Shown here: piece after piece, positions 1 through 25,545 of the stretch
How the letters are laid out: each line of letters starts with the position of its first letter
How positions within the stretch are numbered: position 1 is the stretch's first letter
Assembly: GCA_015228695.1 (NCBI GenBank)
Contig: JADGDA010000001.1
Span: forward strand, 16,283-49,768
Length of the DNA stretch: 33,486 nt
Source: Alphaproteobacteria bacterium
GTDB lineage: Bacteria > Pseudomonadota > Alphaproteobacteria > Rhodospirillales > Rhodospirillaceae
Direction of reading: 5' to 3'
Notes under the pieces: generated by a model
What the model was told of the DNA's origin: nothing
Databases searched by the model: none
The model's input: only the letters and a program-made list of their open reading frames with translations
Made by a program: the position numbers and the translations under genes

Positions 1-233
1 GACGGGGACGGGGACGGGCAACCCCGCCGGGCCTCCCAGCCCAGCCCCTCCCCGGCAAGCTCCGCCCCCGTCGCCCCCGGATCGAACAGGCGGGTGAACA
101 TCACGTTGCTGTGGGCGACGAAAAGGCTCCCGTCCAGCTCCAGCGCCCGCCGGTAATGGGACAACGCCTCCGGCCAGTCCCCAAGGTCCCGGAGAACGTT
201 CCCCAGGTTGTTGTGAAGATAGGCCGTCGCGGG
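1..233. repeat. Partner copy of the 6426..6658 tract
   Basis: Same alignment as the 6426..6658 entry. Both copies encode ...PATAYLHNNLGNVLRDLGDWPEALSHYRRALELDGSLFVAHSNVMFTRLFDPGATGAELAGEG.GWEARRGCPSPSPS on the minus strand. Confidence 0.95.
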
Positions 234-833
234 AAAAAGGGCCAGGGCGCGCTCCAGGGTCTCCCGCGCCTCCAGCTTCCGGCCCAGCCGGGTCTGCGCC
301 ACCGCCAGATTGACCAGCAGGGCCGGGGAGTCCGGGGCTCCCGCGCCGGCGTCCAGGGCCTCCTCCCAGGCGTCCAGGTCCACCAGCGCCTTGACCAGGG
401 AGGTCCGCGCCGGATGGAACCCCGGATCGAGTTCCAACGCACGCCGCAGCGGGGGCAGGGCCCGGACGGGGTCTCCCGCTCCGGCCAGCAGGTCGCCGAG
501 GTTGGCGAGGGCCACGACGTGATCCGGGGCCGTCGCCAGGACGCGGCGGAGGTCCTCTTCCGCCGCCTCCGTCTCCCCGAGCGCCCGCAGCGCCTGGGAC
601 CGGTTGACGCGGAAGGCGGGAAAGGACGGCAGCCGGGACACCGCCCGGCCGATCCAGTCCACGGCCTCCCGGTGGCGGCCCTGCCGGTGGAGGGCGACCC
701 CCAGCAGATGAAGAAGGTCGGCGTCTCCGGGATGGTCGTGCAGCAGGACCCGGCACGCCCGTTCCGCCTCGTCGGGCCGCCCCGCCCGGTGGGCGGCCAG
801 AACGGCGTCGAGGGCGCCTAGGGGAAGTCCCAT
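1..833 (-). CDS. TPR-repeat N-terminal part of a SPINDLY-type (GT41-like) glycosyltransferase paralog (paralog A); the 3' end lies beyond the left window edge
   Basis: Absent from the ORF track because it has no stop inside the window. Hand translation of the minus strand from ATG 833..831 gives MGLPLGALDAVLAAHRAGRPDEAERACRVLLHDHPGDADLLHLLGVALHRQGRHREAV..., which is TPR-like and open down to base 1. The last 233 nt are nearly identical to 6426..6658 in paralog D. The start overlaps the upstream stop by 16 nt. Confidence 0.75.
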   Translation of the reverse strand, partial: MGLPLGALDAVLAAHRAGRPDEAERACRVLLHDHPGDADLLHLLGVALHRQGRHREAVDWIGRAVSRLPSFPAFRVNRSQALRALGETEAAEEDLRRVLATAPDHVVALANLGDLLAGAGDPVRALPPLRRALELDPGFHPARTSLVKALVDLDAWEEALDAGAGAPDSPALLVNLAVAQTRLGRKLEARETLERALALFPATAYLHNNLGNVLRDLGDWPEALSHYRRALELDGSLFVAHSNVMFTRLFDPGATGAELAGEGLGWEARRGCPSPSP

Positions 834-3091
834 GACGTCAGCTTTTCCCCGCGCCCGGCGGCGGCGACGGCGGCGGCGATGAAGGCCTCGAATTCGCGCA
901 CCATCTCGATGTTGTCGAACAGGATCGCCGAACGCCCGCGGATGGCGTCCTGCACCTGCCCGCGCCATTTCTCGTCGCGGGCGAGGCGCAGGGCCTTGGC
1001 CACGTAGTCGTCCACGTCGGCACAGACAAGTTCCTCGTACCCCATGCGCCGATACAGCCCGAGCGACACCCTCCCGCGCATGAAATCCCCCGGAAGCGTC
1101 ACCACCGGCGAGCCCAGGGCCAGCGCCTCGTGGGTGGAGTTGCCGCCGCTGAAATGGAAGGGATCAAGGTTGACGTCGGCGACCTTCAGCAGATTCATGA
1201 AGTCCAGCCGCGGCATCTGGGGCAGGAAGGTGATCCGGTCGGCGACCTCGGGACAGCACAGGGCCATCCGCTGGTGCAGAGCGGGTTTCCAGGCCCCCAT
1301 GGCCGAGGTGGTGATGAACAGATGACCGTCCGGGTCCTCGGTCAGAATCCGGCACACCGCCCGGTCGAAATCGGGATGGAACTTCATCAGATTCTGGGGA
1401 CAGATATAAACGTGGGCCGACGGGGGCAGGCCCAGCCGGGCGCGGTCGCCGGGAACCTCGTCCACGGGAGGACGGGGGTAGCAGGTCGGCAGATGCTTCA
1501 GACGGATCAGCGTTTCGCTGTAGTGACTGTCGCCGTCGTCCGGCTCCAGCAGGCGGGAGGACAGGAAATAGTCCATGGCGGGAATGCCGGTGGTGTCGGG
1601 ATGGCCCCAGGTGACGCACTGCACCGGGGCCAGCCGGGAAAACGCCAGGAAATAGACCTGGGCGACCATTCCGATCTCGAAATAGAACAGCGCGTCGAGT
1701 TCCTCCTCCGCCACCACCGCGCGGGCTCCGGAAAGATCGCCGGGGAGACGGCGGACCTTGTCCACCAGCCGGTCGAGGGCGTCGGATTGATCGTCGGCGA
1801 CGCCTCCCGGCCGGAAGAACACGATGTCCAGGCGGTCGCGGGACAGGTTGCGGATCAGCCCCTCGTTCAGATTGTCCAGCGTCCGGTTGTGCAGATAGGA
1901 GCCGACGATGCCCAGCCGGAGCTTTCCGCTCTTCCTCTCGCCCCGCCTCCCGCCCTGGGGCGACGGGAGGCAGTGGGGGGCCACGAACTCCAGACCGGGG
2001 ACGGTGGCGCGATAGAAATCGGCGATGCGGCGCTGAATCTCCACGTCGTTCAGATTGTGATAGGCGAGGCCGAAGCCGGTCTCGCCGACCTGCCGGGCGG
2101 GATCGGGAATGGAGAACCCCGGCTTTTGCAGCCTGTCCAGGGTCTCCACCAATTGGCGGCGATAATCGAGCATGGCTTCCATGGACGGATAGATCCGGTG
2201 CGCCAGCAGCGCCTCGCGCACGCTGAGCCCGCTCGCCTCCCGGCCCTCGTCGGCCCGGCGGCAACAGGCGCGGGCCTCCTCGATCCTGCCGAGCCGCTTG
2301 TAGGCGCTGGCGAGGTTGAACAGGGCGAGAGACGACTCCGGCGTTCTTTCCAGCACCTTCCGATAGAGCGCGATGCTTTCGTGGACCAACTCCGGCACCT
2401 GGCTGGTGTTGGCCGAGTCGATGGCGATGGCCAGATTCATCAGGGCGTCGGAGTAGTCGGGCTTGAGGGCCAGGGCGTTCCGGAAGGCGTCGGCCGCCGC
2501 CGCTACCCGCCCCAGGTCCAGATAGGCCACCCCCAGATTGCAGTGCACGGACGCATTGTAAGGATCGGCGGCGACGGCGTTGGCGAAGCAGTGAAGGGCC
2601 TCCTCGGGCCGCTTTCCGCGCAGGATGACCCCCAGTTGGGTCCAGGCGTTCACGTTCCGGGGATCGGCGGCGGCGATGGCGGCCCAGACCTCGCGGGCAT
2701 CGCCTCCCCTGGAATCGCGGAGCGTGGCCAGCATCTCCAGGGCGCCGAGCGCCCCGGCGGGGAGGGTGCCGAGCGCCCCGGTAGGGAGAGCGAGGGCTTT
2801 TTCGAAAACCTGCTCGGCCTCCTCCGCCCTGCCCTTCTCCGCCAGAAGGCACCCCAGGTTGGTGATCGCTCCCGCATGGGCGGGTTCGAGGTCGAGGGCC
2901 CGGCGGTAGGCCGCCTCCGCCTCCCCGTGGCGGCCCCGGTCGTGGAGCATCGCCGCCAACTCGAACGCGATCCTGCCGTCCCCGGTCCACGACTCGTCCG
3001 CCCGGCGCAACACGGCCTCCGCGTCGTCGCCGCGTCCCTGCCGCGCCAACCCGGCGGCCTCGACCACGACGGTCTCCGGTTTGACGGACAT
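818..3091 (-). CDS. TPR-repeat + GT41-like glycosyltransferase, divergent subtype (paralog B)
   Basis: Inner part of ORF 818..3304. I chose ATG 3091 (MSVKPETVVVEAAGL...) because AAAGG lies about 8 nt upstream and it sits 4 nt after the upstream stop. TPR repeats occupy the N-half. The C-half carries GT41-type motifs (APVQCVTWGHPDTTGIPAMDYFLSS, VYICPQNLMKFHPDFD, DPFHFSGGNSTHEALALGSPVVTLPG) and is clearly more diverged than the other paralogs. The first 71 codons of the listed ORF look like out-of-context R/G/P-rich extension. Confidence 0.85.
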   Translation of the reverse strand: MSVKPETVVVEAAGLARQGRGDDAEAVLRRADESWTGDGRIAFELAAMLHDRGRHGEAEAAYRRALDLEPAHAGAITNLGCLLAEKGRAEEAEQVFEKALALPTGALGTLPAGALGALEMLATLRDSRGGDAREVWAAIAAADPRNVNAWTQLGVILRGKRPEEALHCFANAVAADPYNASVHCNLGVAYLDLGRVAAAADAFRNALALKPDYSDALMNLAIAIDSANTSQVPELVHESIALYRKVLERTPESSLALFNLASAYKRLGRIEEARACCRRADEGREASGLSVREALLAHRIYPSMEAMLDYRRQLVETLDRLQKPGFSIPDPARQVGETGFGLAYHNLNDVEIQRRIADFYRATVPGLEFVAPHCLPSPQGGRRGERKSGKLRLGIVGSYLHNRTLDNLNEGLIRNLSRDRLDIVFFRPGGVADDQSDALDRLVDKVRRLPGDLSGARAVVAEEELDALFYFEIGMVAQVYFLAFSRLAPVQCVTWGHPDTTGIPAMDYFLSSRLLEPDDGDSHYSETLIRLKHLPTCYPRPPVDEVPGDRARLGLPPSAHVYICPQNLMKFHPDFDRAVCRILTEDPDGHLFITTSAMGAWKPALHQRMALCCPEVADRITFLPQMPRLDFMNLLKVADVNLDPFHFSGGNSTHEALALGSPVVTLPGDFMRGRVSLGLYRRMGYEELVCADVDDYVAKALRLARDEKWRGQVQDAIRGRSAILFDNIEMVREFEAFIAAAVAAAGRGEKLTSWDFP

Positions 3092-3095
3092 GGAG

Positions 3096-5309
3096 TTACC
3101 TTTCGTTCTTCCGACCATGGTCCCCGTCCTTTCCGCTCCGTCCCTCGCACCATTGCCGCCACATCCGGCGATAGCTCTCCTCGACGGCGGCGGTGACGGC
3201 GGCGGCGTCGAGAATCGGGCTGTCGCGGACAATCCCGCGCAGGCCGGCGCGATAGCGGGCCAGCCGGGGACGGTCCGTCGCCAGCGCGACGGCCAGTTCC
3301 ACATAACCGTCCTGATCGGAAGCCACCAGTTCCGGAACCCCCGCGTTGCTCAGCATGGTCACCCCATAGCGTTGACCGGCGAGGTGTCCGGCGAGGGTGA
3401 CGACGGGAACCCCCATCCACAGGGGGATGAGGCTGGACGTCGCGCCGGTCAGGGGGAAGCTGTCGAGGATGACGCCGACGCGCCCGTAGACGGTCATCTC
3501 CTTGAGCCAGCCGCCGGGAACGCCTTCCAGGTCGAACCGTCCATCCCCCAGACGGGCGAACCGCGACCGCCAGTACTTGGCCTGATCGGGAAATTCAAAG
3601 GTTTTGTGCTTCAGCAGCAGCCGCGACCCCGGAACCCGGTCGAGGATGCGCGTCCACAGGCCGAGGCTCACGTCGCCGATCCGGCTCGGCTCGGCGAAAC
3701 AGCCGAACAGGACGCCTTCCTCCTCGGGCAGCGGCGGAACCTCCGGCCAGTCGTCGCGCGGGAGGAAGGGGGCGACGACGTGGGGCATGCGGACCAGCGT
3801 TTCGGTGAAGTGATCCTCGTACCCCGGCGGAGTCAGATAGGGATCGCTCAGGATATAGTCGATGGCGGCCACCCCGGTCGTGGTGTCGTGGCCCACCAGG
3901 GTGGTGACCTGGACCGGGGCCGGCTTGCGGGCGAAGACGTGCATGCGCATCCCCACGGTGTGACCGGCGCAGTCCACCAGGATGTCGATGCCGTCGGCCT
4001 GGATCATGGCGGCGGCCTCGTCGTCGCTTTTCGGCAGGATCACGCGCCAGCGGTCGGCGAGGTCCTGAAAGCGGCGGGTGACCGCGTCCTCCTCGTCCAC
4101 CTGGGAATAGCAGGTGATCTCGAACCGTTCGCGGTCGTGGGCCCGGATCAGGGGCTCCAGGAAATAGGCCACGGCATGGTTGCGGTAATCGGGCGACACA
4201 TACCCGATGCGCAGACGGCGCTCGGGGTCCGGCGCGTTGGCGTGGGACAGGCGGGGAATGGAGCCGAGGTGGCGGGCGTTCCACTCGCGGTAGGCGTCGC
4301 GGAACACCTCTCCCTCCACCCGCCAGTCCAGGCGCAGGCAGGCGATGACGTTATGGTGAATGCCGAAGTCGTCGGGAGCCAGGGCCGCCCCCTTGCGGAA
4401 GGACTCCTGGGCCAACTCGATCTGTCCGCCGGCGTGATAGGCGTTGCCCAGGGCCTGATGGGCAAGGGCGAAGTCGGGCTTGAGTTCGACCGCGCGCGCC
4501 GCCGCCTTGATCGCGCCGGAGATCCGTCCCACGAGCCGGAGGAGACGGCTCAGATTATAAAGAATGATGGGATTATCCGGGGACAGGTCCAGCGCCCACT
4601 TCAACATCGTCTCCGCCTGCCCCGTAAGCCTCAGGTCCTGATAGACCAGCCCGAGGTTGAAAGCGGCGTCGGCATGGCGGGGCTCGATGTCGAGGGCGGC
4701 GCGGTAAGCGGCGACGGCCTCCTGGCTGCGTTGGAGTTCGTGCAGGATGCGGCCCCGGACGAAATGCGCCGGGGCGTCGGATTTCCCCATTGCGATGGCC
4801 TCGTCCACGACGGCCAGGGCCTCGGGGAGACAGTTGGCGCGGAACAGGACCGACCCCAGCCGGAAACGGACGTCGGCGGACGACGCGCCAAGGGCGATGG
4901 CCTTCCGGTAGTACTCGGCGGATTCGGCCGGCTTCTGTTCCCGATCGAGAACCTGGGCCAGGTTCAGATGGGCCTCGATCATGCCCGGATCGAGTTCCAG
5001 GGCCCGCCCGCAGGCCCGGCGCGCCTCCTCCAGGCGGTTCAGCCCCAAAAGGGCGACCGCGAGGTTAGACCAGAACTGACTCGTCTGACGCAGGGACAGG
5101 GCCTTGCCGATCAACTCGACCGCCTGTTCCCCGTGGCCGCACTGGTGCCCCAGCAATCCCAGCATGTGCAGGACATCGGGCTCGTCGGGGGAGACCTTGA
5201 GAATCCGGCGGTAGAGGGTTTCCGCCTCGGCGAACCGGCTCTCCGCGTGATAGGCGACGGCGCGGGCGTAGGCTTCCTCCAGCGACAGGCTTTCCGGCTC
5301 TCCGGCCAT
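3096..5309 (-). CDS. TPR-repeat + SPINDLY-type GT41-like glycosyltransferase (paralog C)
   Basis: Inner part of ORF 3096..6446. The start is ATG 5309..5307 (MAGEPESLSLEEAYARAVAYH...), forming an ATGA overlap with the upstream stop, with GGGAGGGG 6 nt upstream. GT41 motifs are LRIGYVSPDYRNHAV, GIDILVDCAGHT, PAPVQVTTLVGHDTTTG and LDSFPLTGATSSLIPLWMGVPVVTLAG. Confidence 0.9.
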   Translation of the reverse strand: MAGEPESLSLEEAYARAVAYHAESRFAEAETLYRRILKVSPDEPDVLHMLGLLGHQCGHGEQAVELIGKALSLRQTSQFWSNLAVALLGLNRLEEARRACGRALELDPGMIEAHLNLAQVLDREQKPAESAEYYRKAIALGASSADVRFRLGSVLFRANCLPEALAVVDEAIAMGKSDAPAHFVRGRILHELQRSQEAVAAYRAALDIEPRHADAAFNLGLVYQDLRLTGQAETMLKWALDLSPDNPIILYNLSRLLRLVGRISGAIKAAARAVELKPDFALAHQALGNAYHAGGQIELAQESFRKGAALAPDDFGIHHNVIACLRLDWRVEGEVFRDAYREWNARHLGSIPRLSHANAPDPERRLRIGYVSPDYRNHAVAYFLEPLIRAHDRERFEITCYSQVDEEDAVTRRFQDLADRWRVILPKSDDEAAAMIQADGIDILVDCAGHTVGMRMHVFARKPAPVQVTTLVGHDTTTGVAAIDYILSDPYLTPPGYEDHFTETLVRMPHVVAPFLPRDDWPEVPPLPEEEGVLFGCFAEPSRIGDVSLGLWTRILDRVPGSRLLLKHKTFEFPDQAKYWRSRFARLGDGRFDLEGVPGGWLKEMTVYGRVGVILDSFPLTGATSSLIPLWMGVPVVTLAGHLAGQRYGVTMLSNAGVPELVASDQDGYVELAVALATDRPRLARYRAGLRGIVRDSPILDAAAVTAAVEESYRRMWRQWCEGRSGKDGDHGRKNER

Positions 5310-7393
5310 CAGTTCCCCTCCCTGGCGCAGGCCTCCCGCCACAGGCCGCGGAAGGCGGCCTCCATGGCGCGGGCATGTCCCCCGGCGTCCAGCAGCGGAG
5401 AGGCCCGCAGCCGTCCGCGCAGCGTCTCCCGCAGCTCCCGCAGCCGGTCCCCGTCCCGGACCAGACCCGCCGCGATCGCCACCGAGCCGGGGCCGTCCGC
5501 CGCCACCAGCTCCGGAAGGCCCGCCGCCGTGAGCACCGCAGCCCCGAACCGCTGCCCCGCGTGGCCCCCCGCCACCGCCACCACCGGAACCCCCATCCAC
5601 AGAGGAATCAGCGCCGACGTCGCCCCGCTCACCGGCCAGGTGTCCAGAACCACGCTCACCCGGCCGTAGACCCCCATGTGCGCGCCCCAGCCTCCGGCGA
5701 GCCCCTCGAACGAGGACCGCTCCGCCACTGCCGCGAACAGAGACCGCCAGTACGACTCCAGGCGCGGCGAGTCGTAGGCTCCGTGCTTGAACAGAAGACG
5801 CGACCCCGGAACCTCCTCCAGAAGCCGACGCCACCATAGAAGCTGCTCCCCGTCGATCCGCGACGGATCGGACAGGCACCCGAACACCGGCGGACCCGGC
5901 GGAACGGGAGCCGCCTCCGCCCACTCCTCCCGAGGCTGGAACGCCGCGAACGCGCCGGGAATACGCACCACCCGCTCCGTGAACTGCCCCTCCGCCCCCT
6001 CCGGCGTCAAAACCCCGTCGGTCAGCACATGGCCGATCCACGACAGACCGGTCGTTCCCCCGTACCCCAGAACCGCCGTGACCTGCACCGGAGCCGGCCG
6101 CGCCGCCAGCGCCAGAAGCCGGTTCCCGTGGGTGTGCCCGGCGAGGTCCACCAGGATGTCGATCCCGTCCGAGCGAATCCGCTCCGCCAGGACCCCGTCC
6201 CCCATCTTCAGCGTCTCCACCCACCCGTCCGCCAGGGACCGCAGACGCTCCGTCGTCCGATCCGGGCGCGGCGTCCCCGAGTAGCACACCACCTCCACCA
6301 CTGAGCGGTCGTGCGCCCGCAGCAGGGGCTCGGTGAAGAACGCCACCGCGTGCTCCTTGAAGTCCGGGGACACATAGCCGATCCGCAACCGCTTCTCCGG
6401 GTCCCGCGCCACCGGGGGAGGCAGGGACGGGGACGGGGACGGGCAACCCCGCCGGGCCTCCCAGCCCCGCCCCTCCCCGGCAAGCTCCGCCCCCGTCGCC
6501 CCCGGATCGAACAGGCGGGTGAACATCACGTTGCTGTGGGCGACGAAAAGGCTCCCGTCCAGCTCCAGCGCCCGCCGATAATGGGACAACGCCTCCGGCC
6601 AGTCCCCAAGGTCCCGGAGAACGTTCCCCAGGTTGTTGTGAAGATAGGCCGTCGCGGGGGACGCCGCGATGGCGGCGCGGTAGACCTCGGCGGCCTCCAG
6701 CTTCCGCCCGGTCCGGTCCAGAACGATCGCGAGGCTGTTGAGAACGTCGAAATGTCCGGGGCGGAGGCGCAGCGAGGCCTGATAGGATTCGATCGCGTCC
6801 ACCGGACGGTTCGCCTCCAGCCAGACCCCTCCCAGTTCATGCAGGCGGGCCGGATCGGAAGCCGCGAGGCGGGTGGAGTGGGTCAGGTGGGCGACGGCCT
6901 CGTCGAAGCGTCCGAGCGCGGCCAGCGTCCCGGCCAGCGCGTTCCGCGCCGACCAGTTGTCCCCGGACAGCCGGACAGCCTCGGCGAGGCTGGCGGCGGC
7001 GTTTTCAAGCTCGCCCGTTTCCCGGAGGAGCAGACCGAGGTTCAGATGATACCCGCATTCGCCGGGCTCCAGGGCGATGGCCTTGCGGCACGCCTCGATG
7101 CCCTCCCGATGGCGGCCCATCCTGCGGCAGACCTCGGCATAATTGGACAGGAAGCGGGGCGGAGGCGTCTCGCACATCTCGATGGAGCGGAGGACCAGAC
7201 GTTGGGCCGTGTCCAGGTCGCCTTCGATGTGCCGCATCAGGCCCAGCATGTGCATGGCGTCGGCATGCCCGGGAACCCGCGCCAGCAGCATGCCGAGCGC
7301 GGCAACGGCGTCCTGGGTCCGGCCCGCGTTCCGATGGCCGATCGCCGCCGCGAACAGATCGTCGGGGGACGCCCCAGGGGAAGACCCGGTCAA
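5309..7393 (-). CDS. TPR-repeat + SPINDLY-type GT41-like glycosyltransferase (paralog D)
   Basis: Inner part of ORF 5309..8260. The proposed start is TTG 7393..7391, a TTGA overlap with the stop of the upstream gene, with GAGGAGGG upstream. Sensible TPR sequence begins right there (LTGSSPGASPDDLFAAAIGHRNAGRTQDA...). GT41 motifs are LRIGYVSPDFKEHAV, GIDILVDLAGHT and LDTWPVSGATSALIPLWMGVPVVAVAG. The exact start is uncertain. Confidence 0.85.
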   Translation of the reverse strand: MTGSSPGASPDDLFAAAIGHRNAGRTQDAVAALGMLLARVPGHADAMHMLGLMRHIEGDLDTAQRLVLRSIEMCETPPPRFLSNYAEVCRRMGRHREGIEACRKAIALEPGECGYHLNLGLLLRETGELENAAASLAEAVRLSGDNWSARNALAGTLAALGRFDEAVAHLTHSTRLAASDPARLHELGGVWLEANRPVDAIESYQASLRLRPGHFDVLNSLAIVLDRTGRKLEAAEVYRAAIAASPATAYLHNNLGNVLRDLGDWPEALSHYRRALELDGSLFVAHSNVMFTRLFDPGATGAELAGEGRGWEARRGCPSPSPSLPPPVARDPEKRLRIGYVSPDFKEHAVAFFTEPLLRAHDRSVVEVVCYSGTPRPDRTTERLRSLADGWVETLKMGDGVLAERIRSDGIDILVDLAGHTHGNRLLALAARPAPVQVTAVLGYGGTTGLSWIGHVLTDGVLTPEGAEGQFTERVVRIPGAFAAFQPREEWAEAAPVPPGPPVFGCLSDPSRIDGEQLLWWRRLLEEVPGSRLLFKHGAYDSPRLESYWRSLFAAVAERSSFEGLAGGWGAHMGVYGRVSVVLDTWPVSGATSALIPLWMGVPVVAVAGGHAGQRFGAAVLTAAGLPELVAADGPGSVAIAAGLVRDGDRLRELRETLRGRLRASPLLDAGGHARAMEAAFRGLWREACAREGN
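6426..6658. repeat. 233-nt near-identical copy of window positions 1..233 (inter-paralog tract)
   Basis: Base-by-base comparison gives 231/233 identical. The mismatches are at window positions 43 and 153 (6468 and 6578). Identity stops abruptly at 233/6658. The left end is truncated by the window edge. Confidence 0.95.
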
Positions 7394-9453
7394 GACCGTC
7401 CCTCCTCGCACCAGTGTCTCCAAATCCGCCGGAACGCGGCCTCCCACTCGCGGGTGACGCCCGCGGCGTCGCACAGGGCCGAGGCCCGCATGGCCGGACG
7501 CAGGCTCCGCCGCAGCCGCTCCAGGCGCGGAGCGTCCGCCAGAAGGGCGCATCCCGTCTCCAGGAACACCTCGTCGGTCTCGGCCACCAGATCGCCAAGA
7601 CCAGCGTTGTTCAGGATCGAGGCCCCGAACCGCTGCAACGTATGCCCCCCCGCGCGGGTGAGAACCGGGACTCCCATCCACAGGGGAATCAGGCTGGAGG
7701 TGGCTCCGGACGAGGGGAACGTGTCGAGCATCACCCGCACCCTCCGATAAACGTCCATGTTCTTGAACCATCCGCCCGGCAGTCCCTCGAACAGGGCCCG
7801 GTCGGCGAGCGGGGCGAAGCGGGCGCGCCAGTGCTGTTCCATGGCGGGATGGCCATAGGCCTTGTTCTTGAACAGGATGCGGGCGCCGGGCGCCGCGTCG
7901 AGGAGACGCTTCCACAGATCGATGGTCTTGAGGCTGATCCGGACCGGATCGCCGAAGCAGCCGAACAAAAGCTCGTCGGGCACGTCGGGCGCGGGATCGG
8001 GCCAGAACTCCTTGGGCTCGAAGGGCGCGAACACTCTGTCCAGGCGGATCAGCTTCTCGCTGAACTGGCTGTCGAACCCCTCGGGCGTCAGATAGGCATC
8101 GCTCAGGAAATAGTCGATCTCGGCGACCCCGGTCGTCCCGCCGTGTCCCAACGGGGTCGTCACCTGAACCGGCGCGAGCCGCCGCTTGAAGGCGGCCAAG
8201 CGATTTCCGCCGCTGTGACCGCTGCAATCCACCAGGATGTCGATTCCGTCGGCCCGGCACATGTCCGCCAGTCCTCCGTCATGGATGCCCCGGCTGTCGC
8301 GCCAGCAATCGACGCTTTCACGGAACCATCCGGTCACCACGTCCTCGCTCAGGACCTCGTTGTAGCAGACCAGTTCGAACGAGGAGCGGTCGAAATGACG
8401 GAACAGCGGCAGCAGGAAGTAACTGACCGCATGGTCCTTGAAGTCGGCGGACACGAACCCGATCCGCAACCGCCGTTCCGGGTCGCGGGTATTGGTCAGG
8501 GAGGGGAAGTGGGCCGGAACCGTCCTCGACTGCGCCCGGTCCCAGGCCAGGGCCTCGTGGAGCAACGTGGCTCCGGTGACGTCATGCACATGGGTCAGGG
8601 CGAAAATCAGATTGCTCCGGGGAACGGCCAGATCGGGGTTCACCTCCGCGGCGCGGCGGAAAAGATCAACGGCGCCCTCGATATCGCCCTGCAACTGATA
8701 GACGTTGCCCAGATTGCTGAGGGCGGCGTCGTGCCTCGGGATCAGGGCCAGACAGCGCCGGAAGACCGCCGTCGCCTCGTGCAGCATCCCCCGCGAGCTG
8801 TAGACCAGCCCCAGATTGTTGAGGGCGTCGGGGAAGTCCGCCCGCAGCGCCAGCGCCTTCTGGTAACACGCGGCCGCCTCGTCGAGCCGCCCGGCCTTGC
8901 GGTGCAGTTCCCCGAGGCCGTTCAGACCCTCGGGGAAGTCGGGATGGATCCGCAACGCCTCCTCGTACATCACGACCGCCTCTTCCACGCGGCCGAATTT
9001 CTCCAGGGTCAGTCCGAGGTTGAAGCGGTACAGGTGATTCCCGGGAGCCACGGACAGGGCCCGCTCCCGGCATGCCATGGCCTCGTCCATGTGGCCCAGG
9101 TCCTGGAACAGGTTGCCCAGATTGTTGAAAACCTCGCCGTCGGCCGGAGCCAGGGACAGGGCCGTCCGCGCCGAGGACAGGGCCTCGTCGCGCCGCCCCA
9201 GGGCCTGAAGGGCCAAGGCGAGGTGCTGGTGGTAGACGGGCCATTGCCCGCTGATCCCGATCGCCTCCGTGATCAGGGATACGGCGGCGGAATGATTCCC
9301 GGTCTGATAGGCGAGGAGACCCAGCAAATGGATGGCGTCGGCATGCCTCGGCTCAACCTCCAGAATCTTCCGGTACAGGATTTCGGCATCGCCGAACCGG
9401 CCGTTGTTGTGATGATGGACGGCAAGCGCGAGGGCTTCGGGAATCGTGGGCAT
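7390..9453 (-). CDS. TPR-repeat + SPINDLY-type GT41-like glycosyltransferase (paralog E)
   Basis: Inner part of ORF 7390..9747. The start is ATG 9453 (MPTIPEALALAVHHHNNGRFGDAEILYRKILEVEP...), 2 nt after the upstream stop. GT41 motifs are LRIGFVSADFKDHAV, GIDILVDCSGHS, LAPVQVTTPLGHGGTTG and LDTFPSSGATSSLIPLWMGVPVLTRAG. Confidence 0.9.
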   Translation of the reverse strand: MPTIPEALALAVHHHNNGRFGDAEILYRKILEVEPRHADAIHLLGLLAYQTGNHSAAVSLITEAIGISGQWPVYHQHLALALQALGRRDEALSSARTALSLAPADGEVFNNLGNLFQDLGHMDEAMACRERALSVAPGNHLYRFNLGLTLEKFGRVEEAVVMYEEALRIHPDFPEGLNGLGELHRKAGRLDEAAACYQKALALRADFPDALNNLGLVYSSRGMLHEATAVFRRCLALIPRHDAALSNLGNVYQLQGDIEGAVDLFRRAAEVNPDLAVPRSNLIFALTHVHDVTGATLLHEALAWDRAQSRTVPAHFPSLTNTRDPERRLRIGFVSADFKDHAVSYFLLPLFRHFDRSSFELVCYNEVLSEDVVTGWFRESVDCWRDSRGIHDGGLADMCRADGIDILVDCSGHSGGNRLAAFKRRLAPVQVTTPLGHGGTTGVAEIDYFLSDAYLTPEGFDSQFSEKLIRLDRVFAPFEPKEFWPDPAPDVPDELLFGCFGDPVRISLKTIDLWKRLLDAAPGARILFKNKAYGHPAMEQHWRARFAPLADRALFEGLPGGWFKNMDVYRRVRVMLDTFPSSGATSSLIPLWMGVPVLTRAGGHTLQRFGASILNNAGLGDLVAETDEVFLETGCALLADAPRLERLRRSLRPAMRASALCDAAGVTREWEAAFRRIWRHWCEEGRS

Positions 9454-9455
9454 CG

Positions 9456-10715
9456 TCAGGGAGCATCCTGGTCCTGTGAGAGGGAAACGCGGCACTTCTC
9501 CGCGAGAAGACGCCAATTCCCGTCCGGTGAGACCACCGCCTCGCCGGTCTGCGGATCGCGGACGGACAGCGCGCCAAAACGCCAGACCCGTTGCCACAGG
9601 GCGGGATCGGCGGCCATCCTGGTCAGGGCGTACCGGCGCATCCGCCCCGCCACCAGCCTGCGTCCGACCAGGGCGTAGAGCAGGCCCACCCCCCCCGCCA
9701 ACCCCGCGGCGGTGGCCGTGGGCAGCAGCCAGAACGCCGCACCCCACGCCACCACGACCAGGATAAAGGCCCGGGTCGCGTAGAATTCCACGTTCAAGGG
9801 CGTGTGAACCACCCGCAGGGACGATTCCTTGACCTCCACCGTGATCCGTCCCCGCTCGCGGGCGGCCATGAGGAGGGCCAGCAGTTCGGGATCGCCGGGC
9901 TGGAGGGCCTCCGCCCTCTTCCGCAACTCATAGGTCTCGGGAACCCTCGGCGTCCCCTCCTCCGCCCGCTCGAAACGCTCCAGCGCCAGAACCGGCTGTC
10001 CGAGGTCGAGCCGCGCGAGACCGGAGGCGTTGAGAAGGGGCGCGGACTCGGGAAACCGGTCCAGAAGGGCCTCGGCCTCGGCCGCCGCCTCGGCGAACCG
10101 GCCCTGGCGATGGATGATCCGGGCGAGCCGCGCCACGACCGCCGGATCGTCCGGGGTCAGGGCGGCCGCCCGCCGCGCCTCCGCCTCCGCCTCTCCCAGC
10201 AGACCCTGATCCAGGAGCGCGTCGCAGAGATGGACCCGCGCCCCGGCCATCCCGGGATCGATGTCGATCGCGCGCCGGAAGGAAAGGGCGGCCTCGGCGA
10301 AGCGTCCCTGGGCCGACATGACCAGCCCGATGTTGTCGTGGCTGGCGGCGGCCAGATCGGGATCGATCTCCATGGTCCGCAGAAAGGCCTGCTCCGCCCG
10401 GGCCGGCTGTTTCATGCTGAGATAGACGTTGCCGAGATTGCTGAGGAACACGGCTTTGGAAGGCAGCAGTTCGACGGCCCGGCCGATCAGACTCTCCGCC
10501 TGCTCCAGATGCCCGGTGGCGTGGGCCACCAGCCCCAGAAGGTGCAGGGCGTCGGGACAGTCGGGATCGCGGTCCAGGACGGTGCGATAGACATGCTCCG
10601 CCTGGGCCAGATCGCCCTCGGCGTGAAGCAGAAGCCCCCGGCGGATCGTGTCCGCGATCGGCTCCTCGCCGTCGGGGGGGGACTCCGGCGGAGCGGGCTG
10701 GTTCATCGGCTGCAC
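9456..10715 (-). CDS. TPR-repeat protein with two C-terminal transmembrane helices and no glycosyltransferase domain
   Basis: ORF 9456..10715. The start is GTG at 10715 or ATG at 10706. TPR repeats run through about residue 250. A hydrophobic pair (AFILVVVAWGAAFWLL, AAGLAGGVGLLYALVG) lies at about 9666..9770, followed by a roughly 70-aa tail. Confidence 0.8.
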   Translation of the reverse strand: MQPMNQPAPPESPPDGEEPIADTIRRGLLLHAEGDLAQAEHVYRTVLDRDPDCPDALHLLGLVAHATGHLEQAESLIGRAVELLPSKAVFLSNLGNVYLSMKQPARAEQAFLRTMEIDPDLAAASHDNIGLVMSAQGRFAEAALSFRRAIDIDPGMAGARVHLCDALLDQGLLGEAEAEARRAAALTPDDPAVVARLARIIHRQGRFAEAAAEAEALLDRFPESAPLLNASGLARLDLGQPVLALERFERAEEGTPRVPETYELRKRAEALQPGDPELLALLMAARERGRITVEVKESSLRVVHTPLNVEFYATRAFILVVVAWGAAFWLLPTATAAGLAGGVGLLYALVGRRLVAGRMRRYALTRMAADPALWQRVWRFGALSVRDPQTGEAVVSPDGNWRLLAEKCRVSLSQDQDAP

Positions 10716-10728
10716 GGCCCGGCCCGCG

Positions 10729-11619
10729 TCATTTGACCCACGTTCCTTTCCGCACCGCTTGGCTCAGGTGGCGGACGTAGGCCCCGTAGCTGCTGTTGCC
10801 GATTCCGGCCACGCACCGGTGCAGGCCCTCGTCGTCGATGAATCCCATCCTGTAGGCGATTTCCTCCAGACAGGCCACGGTCAGCCCCTGGCGGTCCTCG
10901 ATGGCCTGCACGAAGATGGCCGCCTGCAACAGGGACTCATGGGTGCCGGAATCAAACCAAGCGTACCCGCGTCCCATTTCCTGCACCTGGAGCCGATCCT
11001 GCTTGATATAGGCCCGGATGAGGTCGGTGATTTCGGTTTCGCCCCGGGCGGACGGGACGAGTCCGGCGGCGGCCTCCACCACCTCGGGACCGAAGAAGTA
11101 AAGCCCGGTCACGGCCTCGTTGGAAATCGGCGTCCGGGGCTTTTCCACCACGTCGGCCGGCCGTCCGTCGGCGTCGCGGATCAAAACGCCATAGGCCTCC
11201 GGGGTCCGGGTCAGATAGGTGAAGATGGTGGCTCCGGCCTCCTGCGAGCGGGCGGCCTTCAGCAGTTCCGGCAGTCCGTGGCCGAAGAAGATATTGTCGC
11301 CCAGCACCAGGGAGCACCGGTCCCGGCCGATGAAGTCCCGCGCCAGGACGAAAGCCTGGGGCAACCCCTCAGGCTTGGCCTGAACCGCGTATTCGATGGA
11401 CAGCCCCCACGGCGAGCCGTCCCCCAGCAGGGCCTTGAAGTTCCCTTGATCCTCGGGCCGGGTGATCACCAAAATCTCGCGGATACCCGCCAGCATCAGG
11501 ACGGACAGCGGGTAATAGACCATCGGCTTGTTGTAGACGGGCAGCAACTGCTTGCTGACCCCCAGGGTCACGGGCCAGAGCCGCGTCCCCATGCCTCCGG
11601 CCAGAATGATGCCCTTCAT
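10729..11619 (-). CDS. rfbA: Glucose-1-phosphate thymidylyltransferase
   Basis: Inner part of ORF 10729..11916. ATG 11619 forms an ATGA overlap with the upstream stop. The 296-aa product begins MKGIILAGGMGTRLWPVTLGVSKQLLPVYNKPMVYYPLSVLMLAGIREILVI and also contains LGDNIF and YAWFDSGTHESLLQA, the classic RmlA signature. Confidence 0.95.
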   Translation of the reverse strand: MKGIILAGGMGTRLWPVTLGVSKQLLPVYNKPMVYYPLSVLMLAGIREILVITRPEDQGNFKALLGDGSPWGLSIEYAVQAKPEGLPQAFVLARDFIGRDRCSLVLGDNIFFGHGLPELLKAARSQEAGATIFTYLTRTPEAYGVLIRDADGRPADVVEKPRTPISNEAVTGLYFFGPEVVEAAAGLVPSARGETEITDLIRAYIKQDRLQVQEMGRGYAWFDSGTHESLLQAAIFVQAIEDRQGLTVACLEEIAYRMGFIDDEGLHRCVAGIGNSSYGAYVRHLSQAVRKGTWVK

Positions 11620-13736
11620 GTCGCCGTCCCCCCCTGCCGGGCGCACCATTCGCGCCACATGGAGCGATAGGCGCCTTCGGCGGAGCGGGCGAAGCCCGCC
11701 ACGTCGCAGACCGCGCCGGAAGCCATCCTTCCCCGAAGGCTCCCGCGAAGCGCGGCCAACCGCCCCCCATCGCCAGCCAAGCCCGCCGCCTTGTCCACGT
11801 ACCCATCGAACGAATGGGCGATCAGATCGTCGAGACCGACCGCGCGCAGAATCGAACGGCCGAAGCGGCCTGCGGAATGCGCCCCCGCCAGCGACACCAC
11901 CGGGACGCCCATCCACAAGGGAATGAGTGTCGACGTCGCGCCGGTGATCGGAAAGGTATCAAGGACCAGCGAGACCTGTCCATAGAAATCCATGTGGCGC
12001 GGCCACCCGCCGGGCACGCCTTCCAGGATCAGGCCGTCGCCCAGGGCGGCGAAGCGGCGGCGCCAGTACGCCTCCTGCCCGGCCTCGCCGAACGCGCCGT
12101 GCTTGAGCACGATCCGCGCCCCCGGCAACCGTTCCAGAAGCCGGGACCAGACGGCGACCACCCCGTCGCCGATCCGGGCGGGATTGGCCATGCACGCCAG
12201 CAGCGGCGCTCCTCCCGGCGGCGGGGAAACCTCGGGCCACGAGGGGTCCGGGCGGAACGGGGCGAAAATGGGCAGACGGATGACCGTCTCGGAGAACTCC
12301 CCGTCGTGGCCTTCCGGGGCCAGCGCGGAATCGGCGAGGACGTAATCCATGGCCGCCAAACCCGTCGTCCCCCCATGACCCAGAAGCCAGGTCACCTGGA
12401 CCGGCGCGGGGGCTCGGGCGAGGGCCGCGAGGCGGTTGCGGCCGGAATGTCCGGCGCATTCCACCAGGATATCGATCCCGTCGGCCTGAATCTGTTCGAT
12501 CAGGGCCTCGTCCCGCAGGCCTTGGACCTCCCGCCATCGATCCGCGCCCGCGCGGACGGAGTCCGTGACCTCGTCGCTTTGGGGATGATCGTGATAGCAG
12601 CAGACCTCCACCCGATCCCGATCGTGGGCCGCGACCACTCCGGGAAGGAAGAAGCCGACCGGGTGACGCCTGAAATCGGGGGAGAGGTATCCCACCCTGA
12701 GGCGGCGGAGGGGATCGGGGGTGTTCAGGCACATGCAGCGGGCCGCCCGCCCGTGCGCCCCATCCCAGGACCGGGCCTCCTCAAGCAGCGAGGCCGCCGT
12801 GGCGTGGGGCTCGCCCTGAAGCGCGAGCAGGAGATTGCTATGGACCGCCGGATCGGGCGCGAGGCGGAGCGCGGCCCGGTAGGTCTCCACCGCCTCCCCG
12901 GCCCGGCCCAACGCCGCGAGGGAACCGGCCAGATTGGACAGAACCGTCGCCTGAGCGGGCTCCCTGTCGAGGATGGAGCGGTAGAGTCCGGCGGCTTCGA
13001 CGTTGGCGCCCTCCGCCGACAGCAGATTCGCGAGATTGTTGACGGCGCTCGTCTCCCCGCTGAAGGCGACCGCCCGGCGCAGAATATCGATGGCCGGTTT
13101 CACCTTCCCGGATTTCGCCAGGGCGTCGGCCAGACAGAGGCAGGCGTCAAGGTCGTCCCCATGGCGGGCCAGCACGTCGGTGCAGATCGCGATTGCCCGC
13201 TCGAACTGCCCGTCGCCCGTCAGCGCCATGGCGAGATTGACCGACGCGCCCCGCATGTCGGGAGCCTTGAGCACTACGGCCTTGAACATCTCCCCGGCCT
13301 CGCGCCACTCCCGGCGATGGAGATGGATCGCGCCGAGATTGTTGCGGGCGTTGAGATTGCCGGGGTCCCGGCGCAGCGCGCGGCGGAAGCAGTCGGCCGC
13401 CTGATCCGGGTCCCCCCTGGCGATCAGCGTCGCCCCGAGATTGCACCAGGCGTCGGCCCGATCGGGATCGAGGGCCAGGGCGCGCCGGATCAAGGCCTCC
13501 GCCCCGTCGAGATCGCCTCCCAACTGGCGGCAGACCCCCCGGTAGTGCAGGGCGGCGGCATGGGTCGGCAGCAGGGCGGAAAGCCTCTCCAGGATATCCC
13601 CGGCTTCCGCCGGCCTTCCACCGGCAAGACACGACACCGCAAAGCGGACAAGCTCCGCCGCGACGGGGGCGACGGACTCCGTGTCGCCGGACGACAACCG
13701 TTGCCGAATCGCGGCCAACGCCTGTTCGACGCTCAA
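11616..13736 (-). CDS. TPR-repeat + SPINDLY-type GT41-like glycosyltransferase (paralog H)
   Basis: Inner part of ORF 11616..13952. The proposed start is TTG 13736..13734, a TTGA overlap with the slt stop, with GGGAGGCGGGGGAAGG immediately upstream. GT41 motifs are LRVGYLSPDFRRHPV, GIDILVECAGHS, PAPVQVTWLLGHGGTTG and LDTFPITGATSTLIPLWMGVPVVSLAG. The start is uncertain. Confidence 0.85.
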   Translation of the reverse strand: MSVEQALAAIRQRLSSGDTESVAPVAAELVRFAVSCLAGGRPAEAGDILERLSALLPTHAAALHYRGVCRQLGGDLDGAEALIRRALALDPDRADAWCNLGATLIARGDPDQAADCFRRALRRDPGNLNARNNLGAIHLHRREWREAGEMFKAVVLKAPDMRGASVNLAMALTGDGQFERAIAICTDVLARHGDDLDACLCLADALAKSGKVKPAIDILRRAVAFSGETSAVNNLANLLSAEGANVEAAGLYRSILDREPAQATVLSNLAGSLAALGRAGEAVETYRAALRLAPDPAVHSNLLLALQGEPHATAASLLEEARSWDGAHGRAARCMCLNTPDPLRRLRVGYLSPDFRRHPVGFFLPGVVAAHDRDRVEVCCYHDHPQSDEVTDSVRAGADRWREVQGLRDEALIEQIQADGIDILVECAGHSGRNRLAALARAPAPVQVTWLLGHGGTTGLAAMDYVLADSALAPEGHDGEFSETVIRLPIFAPFRPDPSWPEVSPPPGGAPLLACMANPARIGDGVVAVWSRLLERLPGARIVLKHGAFGEAGQEAYWRRRFAALGDGLILEGVPGGWPRHMDFYGQVSLVLDTFPITGATSTLIPLWMGVPVVSLAGAHSAGRFGRSILRAVGLDDLIAHSFDGYVDKAAGLAGDGGRLAALRGSLRGRMASGAVCDVAGFARSAEGAYRSMWREWCARQGGTAT

Positions 13737-15784: not shown

Positions 15785-15896
15785 TCTAGGGAATTCCGCC
15801 CCGTGGCCGCAAGACCCGAAGACCCTTAAGTCTTGCCCCCCTGCCGGGACGGGGCTATCTTCGCCCGGCCATTGACCATCCGAGGCCGCCGCGGAC
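15785..15896. promoter_or_regulatory. Divergent intergenic region between slt (-) and the GT2 gene (+); presumed promoters
   Basis: This is the only non-coding gap between the two divergent transcription units. I could not assign any specific -35/-10 motif. Confidence 0.3.
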
Positions 15897-16895
15897 ATGG
15901 ACACAGAACCCCAAATCTCGGTCGTGATCCCGGCCTTCTGCGAGGCTGAAAGCCTTGAGGAACTGGCGGAACGCATCGCGGCGGTCCTGGAGGGACGGTC
16001 GTTCGAGGTCATTTTCGTGGACGACGGCTCCACCGACCGCACCCCGGAGGTGCTTCGCGGCCTGGTGGAGCGCATGCCGGAGGTCCGGGCGATCACCCTG
16101 CGCCGCAACTGCGGCAAATCGATCGCCCTGATGGCCGGATTCAGCCGCGCGGGCGGGCGGGCCGTCGTAACCATGGATGCCGATCTCCAGGATAATCCGG
16201 AGGACATCCCCTCCCTGCTCGCCGGTCTCGACCAGGGTTTCGACCTCGTCAACGGCCGCCGCCAGCGCCGCCATGACGGCATTGTCCGCACCCTCGGCTC
16301 GCGCCTGTTCAACGCGGCCGTCTCCCGCGCGACCGGTCTCGTCCTGCATGACTTCAACTGCGGCTTCAAGGCGTTGCGGGGAGAGGTCGCCTCGATGCTC
16401 TGCGTTTACGGCCAGTATCACCGCTACATCCCCCTACAGGCCCACCTGATGGGGTTCAAGGTGACCGAGGCCGAGGTGAGGAACAGCGCCCGCAAGTTCG
16501 GGACGTCCAAGTTCCGGGCCATGCGCTACGAGGGCCTGTTCGATCTGCTGTCGATGCTGTTCATCCATCGTTATGGCCTCAATCCGCTGCACTTCTTCGG
16601 CACTCTGGCGCTGTTGATGATCGTTCCCTCCGTCCTGATTTTGGGATACCTCGGGTTTGATTATCTGCTCCAGGTTCTGGACGTGGGAGAGGGGCACGTA
16701 CCCTTGAACCGTCCGCTGTTTTCCCTGTCCCTGACGACGCTTCTCATGGGGATGCTGGTGTTTCTGAGCGGTTTCATCTGCGATTTCACGCTGCACCACC
16801 ATATCCGCAACAACATGTCCGAGATTCTGGGACTGGTGACGCGGACCCCGGAGAAGACGGCAGCCCAGCCCGATCGGACCCACCATGACGCCTGA
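15897..16895 (+). CDS. GT2-family glycosyltransferase, polyprenyl-phosphate sugar transferase type (GtrB/ArnC/DPM1-like) with C-terminal TM helices
   Basis: ORF 15897..16895 with an ATG start. Motifs are ISVVIPAFCEAESL, VDDGSTDRT and the DxD motif MDADLQD. Two hydrophobic helices lie near the C-terminus (LHFFGTLALLMIVPSVLILGYL, LSLTTLLMGMLVFLSGFI). Confidence 0.9.
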   Translation: MDTEPQISVVIPAFCEAESLEELAERIAAVLEGRSFEVIFVDDGSTDRTPEVLRGLVERMPEVRAITLRRNCGKSIALMAGFSRAGGRAVVTMDADLQDNPEDIPSLLAGLDQGFDLVNGRRQRRHDGIVRTLGSRLFNAAVSRATGLVLHDFNCGFKALRGEVASMLCVYGQYHRYIPLQAHLMGFKVTEAEVRNSARKFGTSKFRAMRYEGLFDLLSMLFIHRYGLNPLHFFGTLALLMIVPSVLILGYLGFDYLLQVLDVGEGHVPLNRPLFSLSLTTLLMGMLVFLSGFICDFTLHHHIRNNMSEILGLVTRTPEKTAAQPDRTHHDA

Positions 16896-23870: not shown

Positions 23871-23899
23871 CCTCCTTTCGAAGCGCCACGGCACATAGC

Positions 23900-25542: not shown

Positions 25543-25545
25543 AAT

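Follow-up and report, generated by a model that had tools for sequence, protein, structure and literature searches.

A seven-gene array of TPR–GT41 glycosyltransferases with a predicted remodelled donor pocket and a linked dTDP-sugar gene in an alphaproteobacterial lineage

What would a bacterium do with a row of glycosyltransferases that resemble SPINDLY (SPY), and which sugar would they handle? The question is raised by a stretch of 33,486 nucleotides (the whole stretch analysed, hereafter ‘the window’) from an Alphaproteobacteria bacterium of the Rhodospirillaceae (GenBank assembly GCA_015228695.1, contig JADGDA010000001.1, positions 16,283 to 49,768), in which tetratricopeptide repeat (TPR) arrays are joined to glycosyltransferase family GT41 catalytic domains in gene after gene. 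Our answer, held with a little better than even confidence, is that the locus encodes an array of seven GT41 enzymes, co-transcribed and fixed long ago, that glycosylate proteins in the cytoplasm, are targeted by their TPRs and probably draw on a deoxythymidine diphosphate (dTDP)-activated sugar. The window is ~68% GC and long spurious open reading frames are abundant, and genes were picked by third-position GC (GC3) and a frame plot, in which positions 1-15,800 resolve into one minus-strand transcription unit with the order slt-H-rmlA-F-E-D-C-B-A. The GT41 genes and their two companions are as follows (‘Arg-type’ refers to a Lys-to-Arg replacement in the donor pocket, described below):

11616..13736, minus strand: H, 706 aa, TPR plus Arg-type GT41 (PF13844, E = 1.2e-33, 116.7 bits)
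10729..11619, minus strand: G = rmlA, 296 aa, glucose-1-phosphate thymidylyltransferase, which makes dTDP-glucose (TIGR01207)
9456..10706, minus strand: F, 416 aa, TPR-only family member (TPR alone in Pfam)
7390..9453, minus strand: E, 687 aa, TPR plus Arg-type GT41 (PF13844, E = 1.3e-30, 106.6 bits)
5309..7393, minus strand: D, 694 aa, TPR plus Arg-type GT41 (PF13844, E = 9.8e-39, 133.4 bits)
3096..5309, minus strand: C, 737 aa, TPR plus Arg-type GT41 (PF13844, E = 4e-42, 144.6 bits)
818..3091, minus strand: B, 757 aa, TPR plus divergent GT41 (PF13844, E = 1.5e-16, 60.2 bits)
<1..833, minus strand: A, N-terminal 277 aa with TPRs only visible, the gene being cut by the window edge

The exact 706-aa H protein is already on record. 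As read from the gene map, slt-H-rmlA-F-E-D-C-B-A is one co-transcribed operon: the junctions measure −4 nt for slt/H (TTGA), −4 for H/rmlA (ATGA), +22 for rmlA/F, +2 for F/E, −4 for E/D (TTGA), −1 for D/C, +4 for C/B and −16 for B/A, and no minus-strand terminator-like site was found between genes of the unit in a scan that is uninformative at 68% GC, the only such site lying inside slt. The original prediction, made from the sequence alone, had proposed a single translationally coupled operon, and this holds on the minus strand with junctions from −16 to +22 nt; its upstream end at 13736 does not, as the TTG start of H overlaps the stop of slt (13733-15739) and the unit therefore starts upstream at slt.

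The array continues beyond the window edge. Two sister assemblies of the same metagenome-assembled genome (MAG) lineage were read (L005 and L006, both annotated ‘Alphaproteobacteria bacterium’), of which L005 is 99% identical to the window over shared genes and runs E-D-C-B, then a complete A (655 aa, TPR plus GT41; 8212-10179, 99% identical to the A fragment in the window) and then a seventh paralog, Z (694 aa). L006 repeats purK ... GT2 | slt-H-rmlA-F-E-D and breaks inside D. On these gene orders the full array is seven GT41 paralogs, namely H, E, D, C, B and A, plus Z outside the window. Six TPR–GT41 paralogs had originally been counted, of which H, E, D, C and B are complete in the window while A shows only its 277 aa of TPR; and what had been called a six-fold tandem expansion is a set of seven genes forming an ancient, stable array rather than a recent expansion. 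After Z, on the opposite strand, L005 carries a small protein with a GIY-YIG nuclease domain (12540-12830), which marks the operon end in this lineage.

Membership in GT41 is the firmest part of the identification. PF13844 is matched above its gathering score in H, E, D, C and B (60.2-144.6 bits against a cutoff of 25; E-values 4e-42 to 1e-16), the window part of A having no match as it is truncated, and several Pfam TPR families match the first ~250-345 aa of every paralog, so that the GT41 plus TPR assignment made earlier is confirmed by profile for these five. Four recurring motifs had also been described for the family; H, E, D and C have them (the longest at 17-19 of 19 positions), B has them weakly or not at all, and the visible part of A lacks them. 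Paralog C matches Arabidopsis SPINDLY (7y4i) at E=2e-95 over SPY residues 295-848, the whole catalytic domain, a Thermobaculum GT41 at 2e-93 and human OGT (hOGT) at 2e-74, with XcOGT also matched. Its last TPRs align with the C-terminal TPRs of SPY, and the arrays are co-linear with the substrate-binding TPRs of SPY/OGT. The AlphaFold model of the C catalytic half (mean predicted confidence, pLDDT, 90.2) superimposes on SPY with a template-modelling (TM) score of 0.92, a root-mean-square deviation of 1.8 A and 36% identity, and gives TM scores of 0.89 with TtOGT, 0.84 with XcOGT and ~0.82 with hOGT. A sequence scan found no signal peptide and no convincing transmembrane segment in the GT41 paralogs.

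The family itself is large, with 46,228 representatives at 50% clustering, and multiplicity of GT41 domains is not unique to this locus, because multi-domain fusions and small tandems are both common. An exhaustive GT41 profile search was ranked by summed score, and multi-domain giants fill the top 150, so no window-type single-domain protein occurs among the top 150 matches listed. We also observed that the fusions, which are common, join 2-6 GT41 catalytic domains in giant polypeptides of up to 3,855 aa (L004 6282-14433; P0265-P0270); one all-Arg-type GT41 fusion occurs in the same MAG as L008, and such fusions are ‘arrays’ in fused form.

The catalytic domains depart from their characterised relatives in the donor pocket. 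SPY K665 (hOGT K842) is essential and binds phosphates, and SPY Y744 (hOGT C917, ApHMW1C F517) gates donor sugar size, with Y744A and Y744C nearly abolishing fucosyl transfer (PMC9715652); XcOGT D471 (SPY E752, hOGT D925) forms a hydrogen bond with the UDP ribose, and hOGT is inactive when this acid is mutated (PMC2556091). SPY K665M, hOGT K842M and His mutants including SPY H495 are inactive as well (PMC9715652, PMC2556091). Pocket positions were mapped through HMMER alignments, which contain no gaps here. H, E, D and C, like A and Z of L005, keep SPY D491 ... H495 (SPDF..H), while in all six N661 is replaced by Ala, Gly or Ser, L663 by Pro, K665 by Arg (Lys being found only in B), the gate Y744 by Ile, Ser, Val or Leu, and the ribose-binding E752 by Ile (within ‘GATSxLIPLW’). 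For the four Arg-type genes complete in the window, the residues are:

H, minus strand: His358, Arg521 (12174-12176), gate Ile597, Ile605
E, minus strand: His341, Arg505 (7939-7941), gate Ser581, Ile589
D, minus strand: His348, Arg512 (5858-5860), gate Val588, Ile596
C, minus strand: His378, Arg543 (3681-3683), gate Leu620, Ile628

Every one of the seven paralogs departs somewhere from the canonical residue set, and all seven lack the gate Tyr. Many bacterial homologs, in contrast, carry the full D-H-K-H-Y-T signature, and ~80% of homolog domains with Lys or Arg at the K665 site have Lys. Among Lys-type homolog domains (n=178), Asn661 is present in 161/178, an acid (Glu or Asp) at the ribose site in 169/178 and an aromatic gate in 160/178 (Tyr 133, Phe 24, Trp 3), whereas the window-type Arg domains (n=26, non-identical) have Pro at 663, an aliphatic or Ser gate with no Tyr, and Ile at the ribose site in 24/26. 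A second Arg subtype (x-R-H-E) is distinct and keeps the acid. Fifty-eight columns are invariant across the Arg subtype of the window, including the replacement Arg and the Ile-Pro motif. Judged from these alignments, the five co-varying positions define a distinct GT41 sub-lineage with a predicted remodelled donor pocket, to which six of the seven catalytic domains belong. The original prediction had held that loss of the conserved catalytic Lys or His would speak against it, and here the picture is divided: Arg stands for Lys in H, E, D and C (and in A and Z) with the His kept, and in B the Lys is kept with Arg in place of the His (SPY H495 / hOGT H558).

Paralog B, already singled out as clearly divergent, is indeed so, its motifs being weak or absent and its position that of a separate, widespread clade with signature x-H-Q-K-F-N and >1000 homologs. 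It retains Lys570 (1382-1384), has Phe647 at the gate, keeps Glu655 and has Gln at the N661 and Leu at the L663 position; Arg403 (1883-1885) occupies the His site, with a His two residues earlier. In a search of PDB sequences, B matches TtOGT (162-490) and XcOGT (201-524) at E~1e-24 and HMW1C-type enzymes at ~1e-16, with SPY also matched. The sequence ‘LHNRT’ is confined within the clade to B and its Paramagnetospirillum marisnigri ortholog, ~118/120 members reading ‘LRxHT’. Compared with the clade's ‘YLRxHT’, residues 397-405 of B (‘GSYLHNRTL’) look as though the Arg and the catalytic-site His, two residues apart, had been swapped. The catalytic half of B is the most conserved of all paralogs, at 78% identity between species.

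The species in question, P. marisnigri, supplies the nearest named relative of C (66% identity) and carries the identical order H-rmlA-F-E-D-C-B-A-Z, plus one extra upstream Lys-type GT41. All seven paralogs have a 1:1 ortholog there with the pocket signature conserved, so that of the synteny and copy-number comparison proposed earlier, order is kept and copy number in this relative is seven plus the extra Lys-type gene. Orthologs are 60-78% identical between species in their catalytic halves and 52-63% in their TPR halves, compared with 45-51% and 25-43%, respectively, between paralogs, and dN/dS is 0.16-0.28 over seven operon genes (H, rmlA, F, E, D, C and B), at dS values close to saturation. 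Because the orthologs are 1:1 in the same order, the paralogs far more diverged and dN/dS low, the array, on this comparison of sequences, appears to be old, stable and under selection. A synteny search of GTDB reference genomes anchored on F returned two spurious TPR matches at 27% identity and nothing else. The orthologs share the pocket changes, and purifying selection maintains them; this points to variant chemistry rather than dead enzymes.

Paralogs A and D break this pattern of divergence in a way that separates the two modules of the protein. The feature in the D copy is:

5324..6661, minus strand: A/D conversion tract, ~1338 nt, running from within the last TPR across the linker and all of the catalytic domain (extent taken from L005)

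Inside the window the tract is seen as 1-236 against 6426-6661, with 4 mismatches of which 2 are internal; in L005 it spans 1338 nt, and the two mismatches it has lie at its boundary, while in P. marisnigri it spans 1301 nt with four. It starts inside the last TPR in both genomes (aa 200/245 and 218/256). Within a genome the catalytic half of A is 99-100% identical to that of D, yet the same region is ~70% identical between species, whereas the TPR half of A is 37-43% identical to that of D and each TPR half 54-57% identical to its own ortholog; TPR-coding DNA upstream of the tract is ~50% identical between A and D in a windowed comparison. Because the module is near-identical in both species yet only ~70% conserved between them, and sits on anciently diverged TPRs, these comparisons indicate that a single catalytic module is maintained by gene conversion (concerted evolution) on two TPR modules of ancient divergence. 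As a side observation, L006 ends (12061-13122) inside D at ~aa 354, within the tract duplicated in A, where the 1.3-kb repeat seems to have broken the assembly, and the left edge of the window likewise falls inside the A copy of the tract.

A clue to the donor comes from the company the Arg-type genes keep. The ‘nucleotide-sugar gene’ noted earlier in the operon is borne out as RmlA: TIGR01207 is matched at 411.4 bits against a cutoff of 360.65, over profile positions 1-285/286, and the place of rmlA in the operon is the same in P. marisnigri as in the window lineage. An unrelated alphaproteobacterial MAG has two window-type GT41 genes and, immediately behind them, rmlC (TIGR01221; 222 bits, cutoff 156) and a short-chain dehydrogenase/reductase (SDR) family epimerase/reductase. 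For comparison, a metagenome scan with the Arg-type profile gave almost only canonical Lys-type loci, so that the Arg-type sample was not enlarged and 77 purely Lys-type loci served as controls (776 kb in total, 33 of them ≥10 kb); rmlA or rmlC homologs occur in 0/77 of these. Two independent events against zero in controls make the rml link, as a pattern of gene neighbourhood, suggestive rather than conclusive. As rml genes are associated with this subtype, and both the acid that binds ribose and the Tyr that gates fucose are gone, our best guess at present for the donor is a dTDP-sugar. The literature searched contains nothing relevant on GT41 linked to dTDP-sugars or rhamnose; a Klebsiella O-antigen paper that combines TPR and dTDP-rhamnose proved unrelated to GT41.

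The remaining member of the operon, F, is the ‘TPR membrane protein’ of the original prediction, a description that fits a TPR array with a hydrophobic C-terminal segment. The array is co-linear with those of C (38% identity) and A (37%), and the C-terminal ~130 aa, with a hydrophobic segment at aa 309-334, is conserved in P. marisnigri. From its sequence F looks like a family member whose catalytic half gave way to a membrane-associated domain, and we infer that it might act as a tether or adaptor.

Taken together, these observations suggest how the system might work. The N-terminal TPR superhelix of each enzyme would select its own protein target or site, and the C-terminal GT-B domain would move a sugar from a nucleotide-sugar donor. 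In the six Arg-type enzymes this donor would most likely be one other than GDP-fucose or UDP-GlcNAc, the best candidate being a dTDP-activated hexose or 6-deoxyhexose fed by the operon's own RmlA. A and D would carry one catalytic module, kept identical by gene conversion, on different TPRs, and so perform the same chemistry on two targets. To our knowledge all characterised GT41 members glycosylate proteins, and the proposal made earlier of a protein-glycosylation system with several TPR ‘readers’ is a reasonable one in view of this family behaviour. Protein acceptors, the identity of the donor, the role of F and a distinct target for each TPR array are what we infer beyond the sequence itself.

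Several points weigh against this account. The rml operons are only two independent cases, the window and P. marisnigri counting as one event, and L004, another locus of the unrelated MAG, has no rml gene in its 14 kb. In the window rmlA stands alone, rmlBCD not being present there, so that the sugar could be plain glucose, and rmlA could serve something else. No gene for a candidate substrate is conserved beside the array. The Lys-to-Arg change retains the positive charge and might leave specificity as it was, and Ile in place of the acid fits a deoxyribose nucleotide and does not prove it. Assemblers could slightly inflate the A/D identity, although the tract appears in three independent assemblies with 2-4 mismatches in two of them, and the two internal mismatches within the window copy argue that the identity is not purely assembler-made. 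Activity, donor and acceptor are, finally, put forward as predictions from sequence and a structural model.

A bolder form of the same idea, which we regard as possible but doubtful, is that enzymes with ‘P-x-R ... GATSxLIPLW’ may constitute an unrecognised GT41 class of cytoplasmic protein O-glycosyltransferases using dTDP-sugars such as dTDP-L-rhamnose, the Lys-to-Arg and Glu-to-Ile changes fitting a 2′-deoxyribose, and that the locus may be a combinatorial array in which catalytic modules for several different sugars are joined to TPR modules for different targets, the A/D module being kept identical by conversion. dTDP-L-rhamnose is the 6-deoxy-L-hexose counterpart of SPINDLY's GDP-L-fucose. 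A bacterial parallel for such chemistry is EarP (GT104), a cytoplasmic GT-B enzyme without TPRs that transfers rhamnose from dTDP-rhamnose onto an Arg of EF-P (N-linked); the proposed chemistry is alike, but EarP belongs to another family and serves a single substrate, and the likeness is one of description, with no homology claimed.

An unlikely alternative is that these are ordinary SPINDLY- or OGT-like enzymes acting on GDP-fucose or UDP-GlcNAc, their pocket changes being neutral drift and rmlA an unrelated passenger. SPINDLY, the Arabidopsis GT41 protein O-fucosyltransferase (7Y4I, 8DTF), shares the TPR superhelix and two-lobe GT-B fold, is the best match of C in both sequence (E=2e-95) and structure (TM 0.92), and has D491/H495 equivalents in all six Arg-type paralogs; relatives are annotated ‘protein O-GlcNAc transferase / SPINDLY family’, and Arg preserves the positive charge that contacts the phosphates. 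However, SPINDLY is a single eukaryotic gene and the window a seven-gene bacterial operon with rmlA, and the window enzymes differ from it by K665R, N661A/G/S, L663P, Y744I/S/V/L and E752I, so that of the O-fucosyltransferase residues Y744, N661 and K665 none is found in H, E, D or C, and B has Phe at the gate and Lys at K665. Drift also fits poorly with five pocket positions that shift together and are fixed across orthologs, with a Tyr whose replacement by Ala or Cys nearly abolishes fucosyl transfer in SPY and which is missing in 7/7 paralogs, with Ile at the site of an acid whose mutation inactivates hOGT, and with rml genes that recur only alongside the Arg subtype. Because the SPY pocket residues are replaced and the operon carries rmlA, GDP-fucose is an unlikely donor for the Arg-type enzymes as their sequences read, and the earlier label ‘SPINDLY-type’ holds for a TPR-fused GT41 of SPY/OGT type but not functionally, Tyr744 and the ribose-binding acid being replaced. 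The OGT side of the comparison runs in parallel. Human and Drosophila OGT, XcOGT (2JLB) and TtOGT (5DJS) are likewise GT41 enzymes with TPRs and a GT-B fold (TM 0.82-0.89), and XcOGT and TtOGT resemble the window enzymes further in being bacterial and without an established physiological substrate. Unlike the Arg-type paralogs, however, OGT, XcOGT and wild-type TtOGT have both the Lys and an Asp or Glu that binds the ribose (the deposited 5DJS chain is an engineered K341M mutant); the OGT intervening domain is missing from the window enzymes, and the characterised bacterial OGT homologs are single genes whereas the window enzymes form an array.

Less likely again is that the array serves adhesins or autotransporters by the logic of HMW1C, EtpC or TibC, a giant Ser/Thr/Asn-rich repeat protein being decorated in the cytoplasm before export. 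In P. marisnigri (L003, LWQT01000028.1, 19569-22208) the gene directly after the array, on the same strand, encodes an 1822-aa protein of the autotransporter family with a signal peptide and ~72-aa repeats (‘GGAIGT’, ‘GNIDNLSGTASRGD’, ‘SAGANNSEVQFDGN’) that are S/T/N/G-rich and dense in Ser/Thr and N-x-S/T sequons, which makes it a candidate glycosylation substrate; its homologs carry the autotransporter beta-domain PF03797. In Magnetospirillum sp. SS-4 (L007 1261-8841, CACVCH010000071.1) an 1166-aa autotransporter homolog lies ~2 kb from a TPR-GT41 gene with a methyltransferase alongside. (The SS-4 autotransporter is preceded by a 595-aa multi-pass membrane protein without a Pfam match.) Only these two cases come with genomic context, however, and the GT41 in SS-4, whose D/H pair is replaced by Y and S, is Lys-type (‘NNFAK’), as is the extra P. 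marisnigri GT41, neither being an ortholog of the Arg-type array; in the window lineage, moreover, Z is followed by the GIY-YIG gene, with no autotransporter before the contig end. The literature searched contains nothing relevant on Magnetospirillum OGT-like genes or on GT41 with autotransporters. The HMW1C-like N-glycosyltransferases (NGTs; ApNGT, 3Q3E; Yersinia HmwC) are cytoplasmic GT41 enzymes that do glycosylate secreted adhesins before export, and the gate Phe of ApHMW1C, F517, is common to B, which matches them weakly (E~1e-16). They differ in having an all-alpha N-terminal domain where B and C have TPRs, and neither B (70 bits) nor C (24.5 bits) reaches the cutoff of 1000 for the NGTferase model NF049992, B being nearer TtOGT and XcOGT.

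Flagellin glycosylation of the FlmG kind, in which the TPRs would bind flagellins and the paralogs would serve several flagellins or sugars, appears improbable. FlmG of Caulobacter crescentus is a soluble O-glycosyltransferase whose N-terminal TPR binds flagellins and whose C-terminal GT-B domain uses pseudaminic acid (PMC7591256); it follows the same two-module logic, is likewise alphaproteobacterial and is a precedent for a TPR module that carries target specificity (PMC7591256), the likeness being one of architecture and not of sequence comparison. FlmG is, however, a single enzyme in a flagellar and nonulosonic-acid gene context that is not present here: no flagellin, flagellar or nonulosonic-acid (Pse/Leg) gene was found in the 33-kb window or the syntenic loci, and the pseudaminic acid pathway that supplies FlmG is not present at the locus. 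For the flagellins, pilins or surface proteins first suggested as targets, the window offers no support. The first gene of the operon also touches on this possibility:

13733..15739, minus strand: slt, 668 aa, Slt70-like soluble lytic transglycosylase (Pfam SLT, 1.5e-26; alternative ATG at 15784)

Its product begins with a hydrophobic signal sequence, i.e. a signal peptide, and resembles a flagellar lytic transglycosylase model below that model's cutoff, as its NCBIfam Slt70-like matches are below theirs. A functional part for slt in the system was considered and rejected, since its adjacency is not conserved in P. marisnigri, and for the same reason it is probably an incidental passenger in the operon.

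The idea of a non-protein acceptor, in which the TPRs would assemble a synthase complex for a rhamnose or glucose polysaccharide or glycolipid at the membrane via F, strikes us as very improbable, even though rml genes are classically tied to O-antigen and exopolysaccharide synthesis, F is probably membrane-associated and a polyprenyl-phosphate GT2 with a methyltransferase is transcribed divergently. It has to contend with the absence from the operon of Wzx/Wzy, an ABC exporter or an initiating phosphoglycosyltransferase, with TPR arrays that are co-linear with the substrate-binding TPRs of SPY/OGT, and with the family itself, in which, by established knowledge and the SPY papers, no characterised member has a non-protein acceptor. 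The divergent pair (15897-17694, plus strand) consists of a polyprenyl-phosphate-type GT2 (ArnC/GtrB-like, 158 bits, below cutoff) and an overlapping S-adenosylmethionine (SAM) methyltransferase, and is kept in the sister assembly L006. Between it and slt lies:

15740..15896, no strand assigned: divergent intergenic region from slt to the plus-strand GT2 gene, presumed operon promoter region

The operon promoter is presumed to lie here from position only, a scan that is uninformative at 68% GC having detected no sigma-70 consensus in this region.

That the paralogs are catalytically dead TPR scaffolds or regulators is the least probable account, and a very remote one, for although SPY K665M, hOGT K842M and the His mutants are inactive and 0/7 paralogs keep the full canonical set, conservation is higher in the catalytic halves (60-78%) than in the TPR halves (52-63%), dN/dS is 0.16-0.28, the 58 invariant columns include the replacement Arg and the Ile-Pro motif, and gene conversion preserves specifically the catalytic module.

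Elsewhere in the window, a defence island occupies a lower-GC stretch (0.53-0.65) at 21093-33442. Its genes encode a PDC-S01 candidate ATPase (DUF4143, 21093-22343, E=3e-92), a HEPN and nucleotidyltransferase pair (22457-23601), a DUF4238 protein (23900-24871, GC 0.53), the pair IetA (25978-26964, E=4e-74) and IetS (26986-29514, E=1e-39), and an SMC/LmuB-like protein of 1269 aa (29633-33442) with a weak C-terminal S24-peptidase match.

Returning to the TPR-targeted, probably dTDP-sugar-using array that we favour, its family, GT41, is an ordinary one; as far as sequence allows, what appears new lies in the donor pocket, the link to a dTDP-sugar gene and the modular evolution, with function remaining a prediction, and a seven-gene array with such an active-site signature and A/D conversion is, to judge from the literature searched, not described. 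O-GlcNAc transferase and SPINDLY, both of them central to regulation in animals and plants, are GT41 enzymes, and the large bacterial branch of the family is essentially uncharacterised. P. marisnigri SP-1 carries the whole array, and if this strain is cultivable, as we take it to be, genetics and glycoproteomics would be feasible there; should the donor prediction be true, the enzymes would be useful parts for protein glycosylation engineering. The A/D pair is a natural experiment on specificity that directly supports the idea that the TPRs choose the target and the GT domain chooses the sugar, and the five-position signature predicts a new GT41 donor class, with the rml genes as a hint of what that donor may be.

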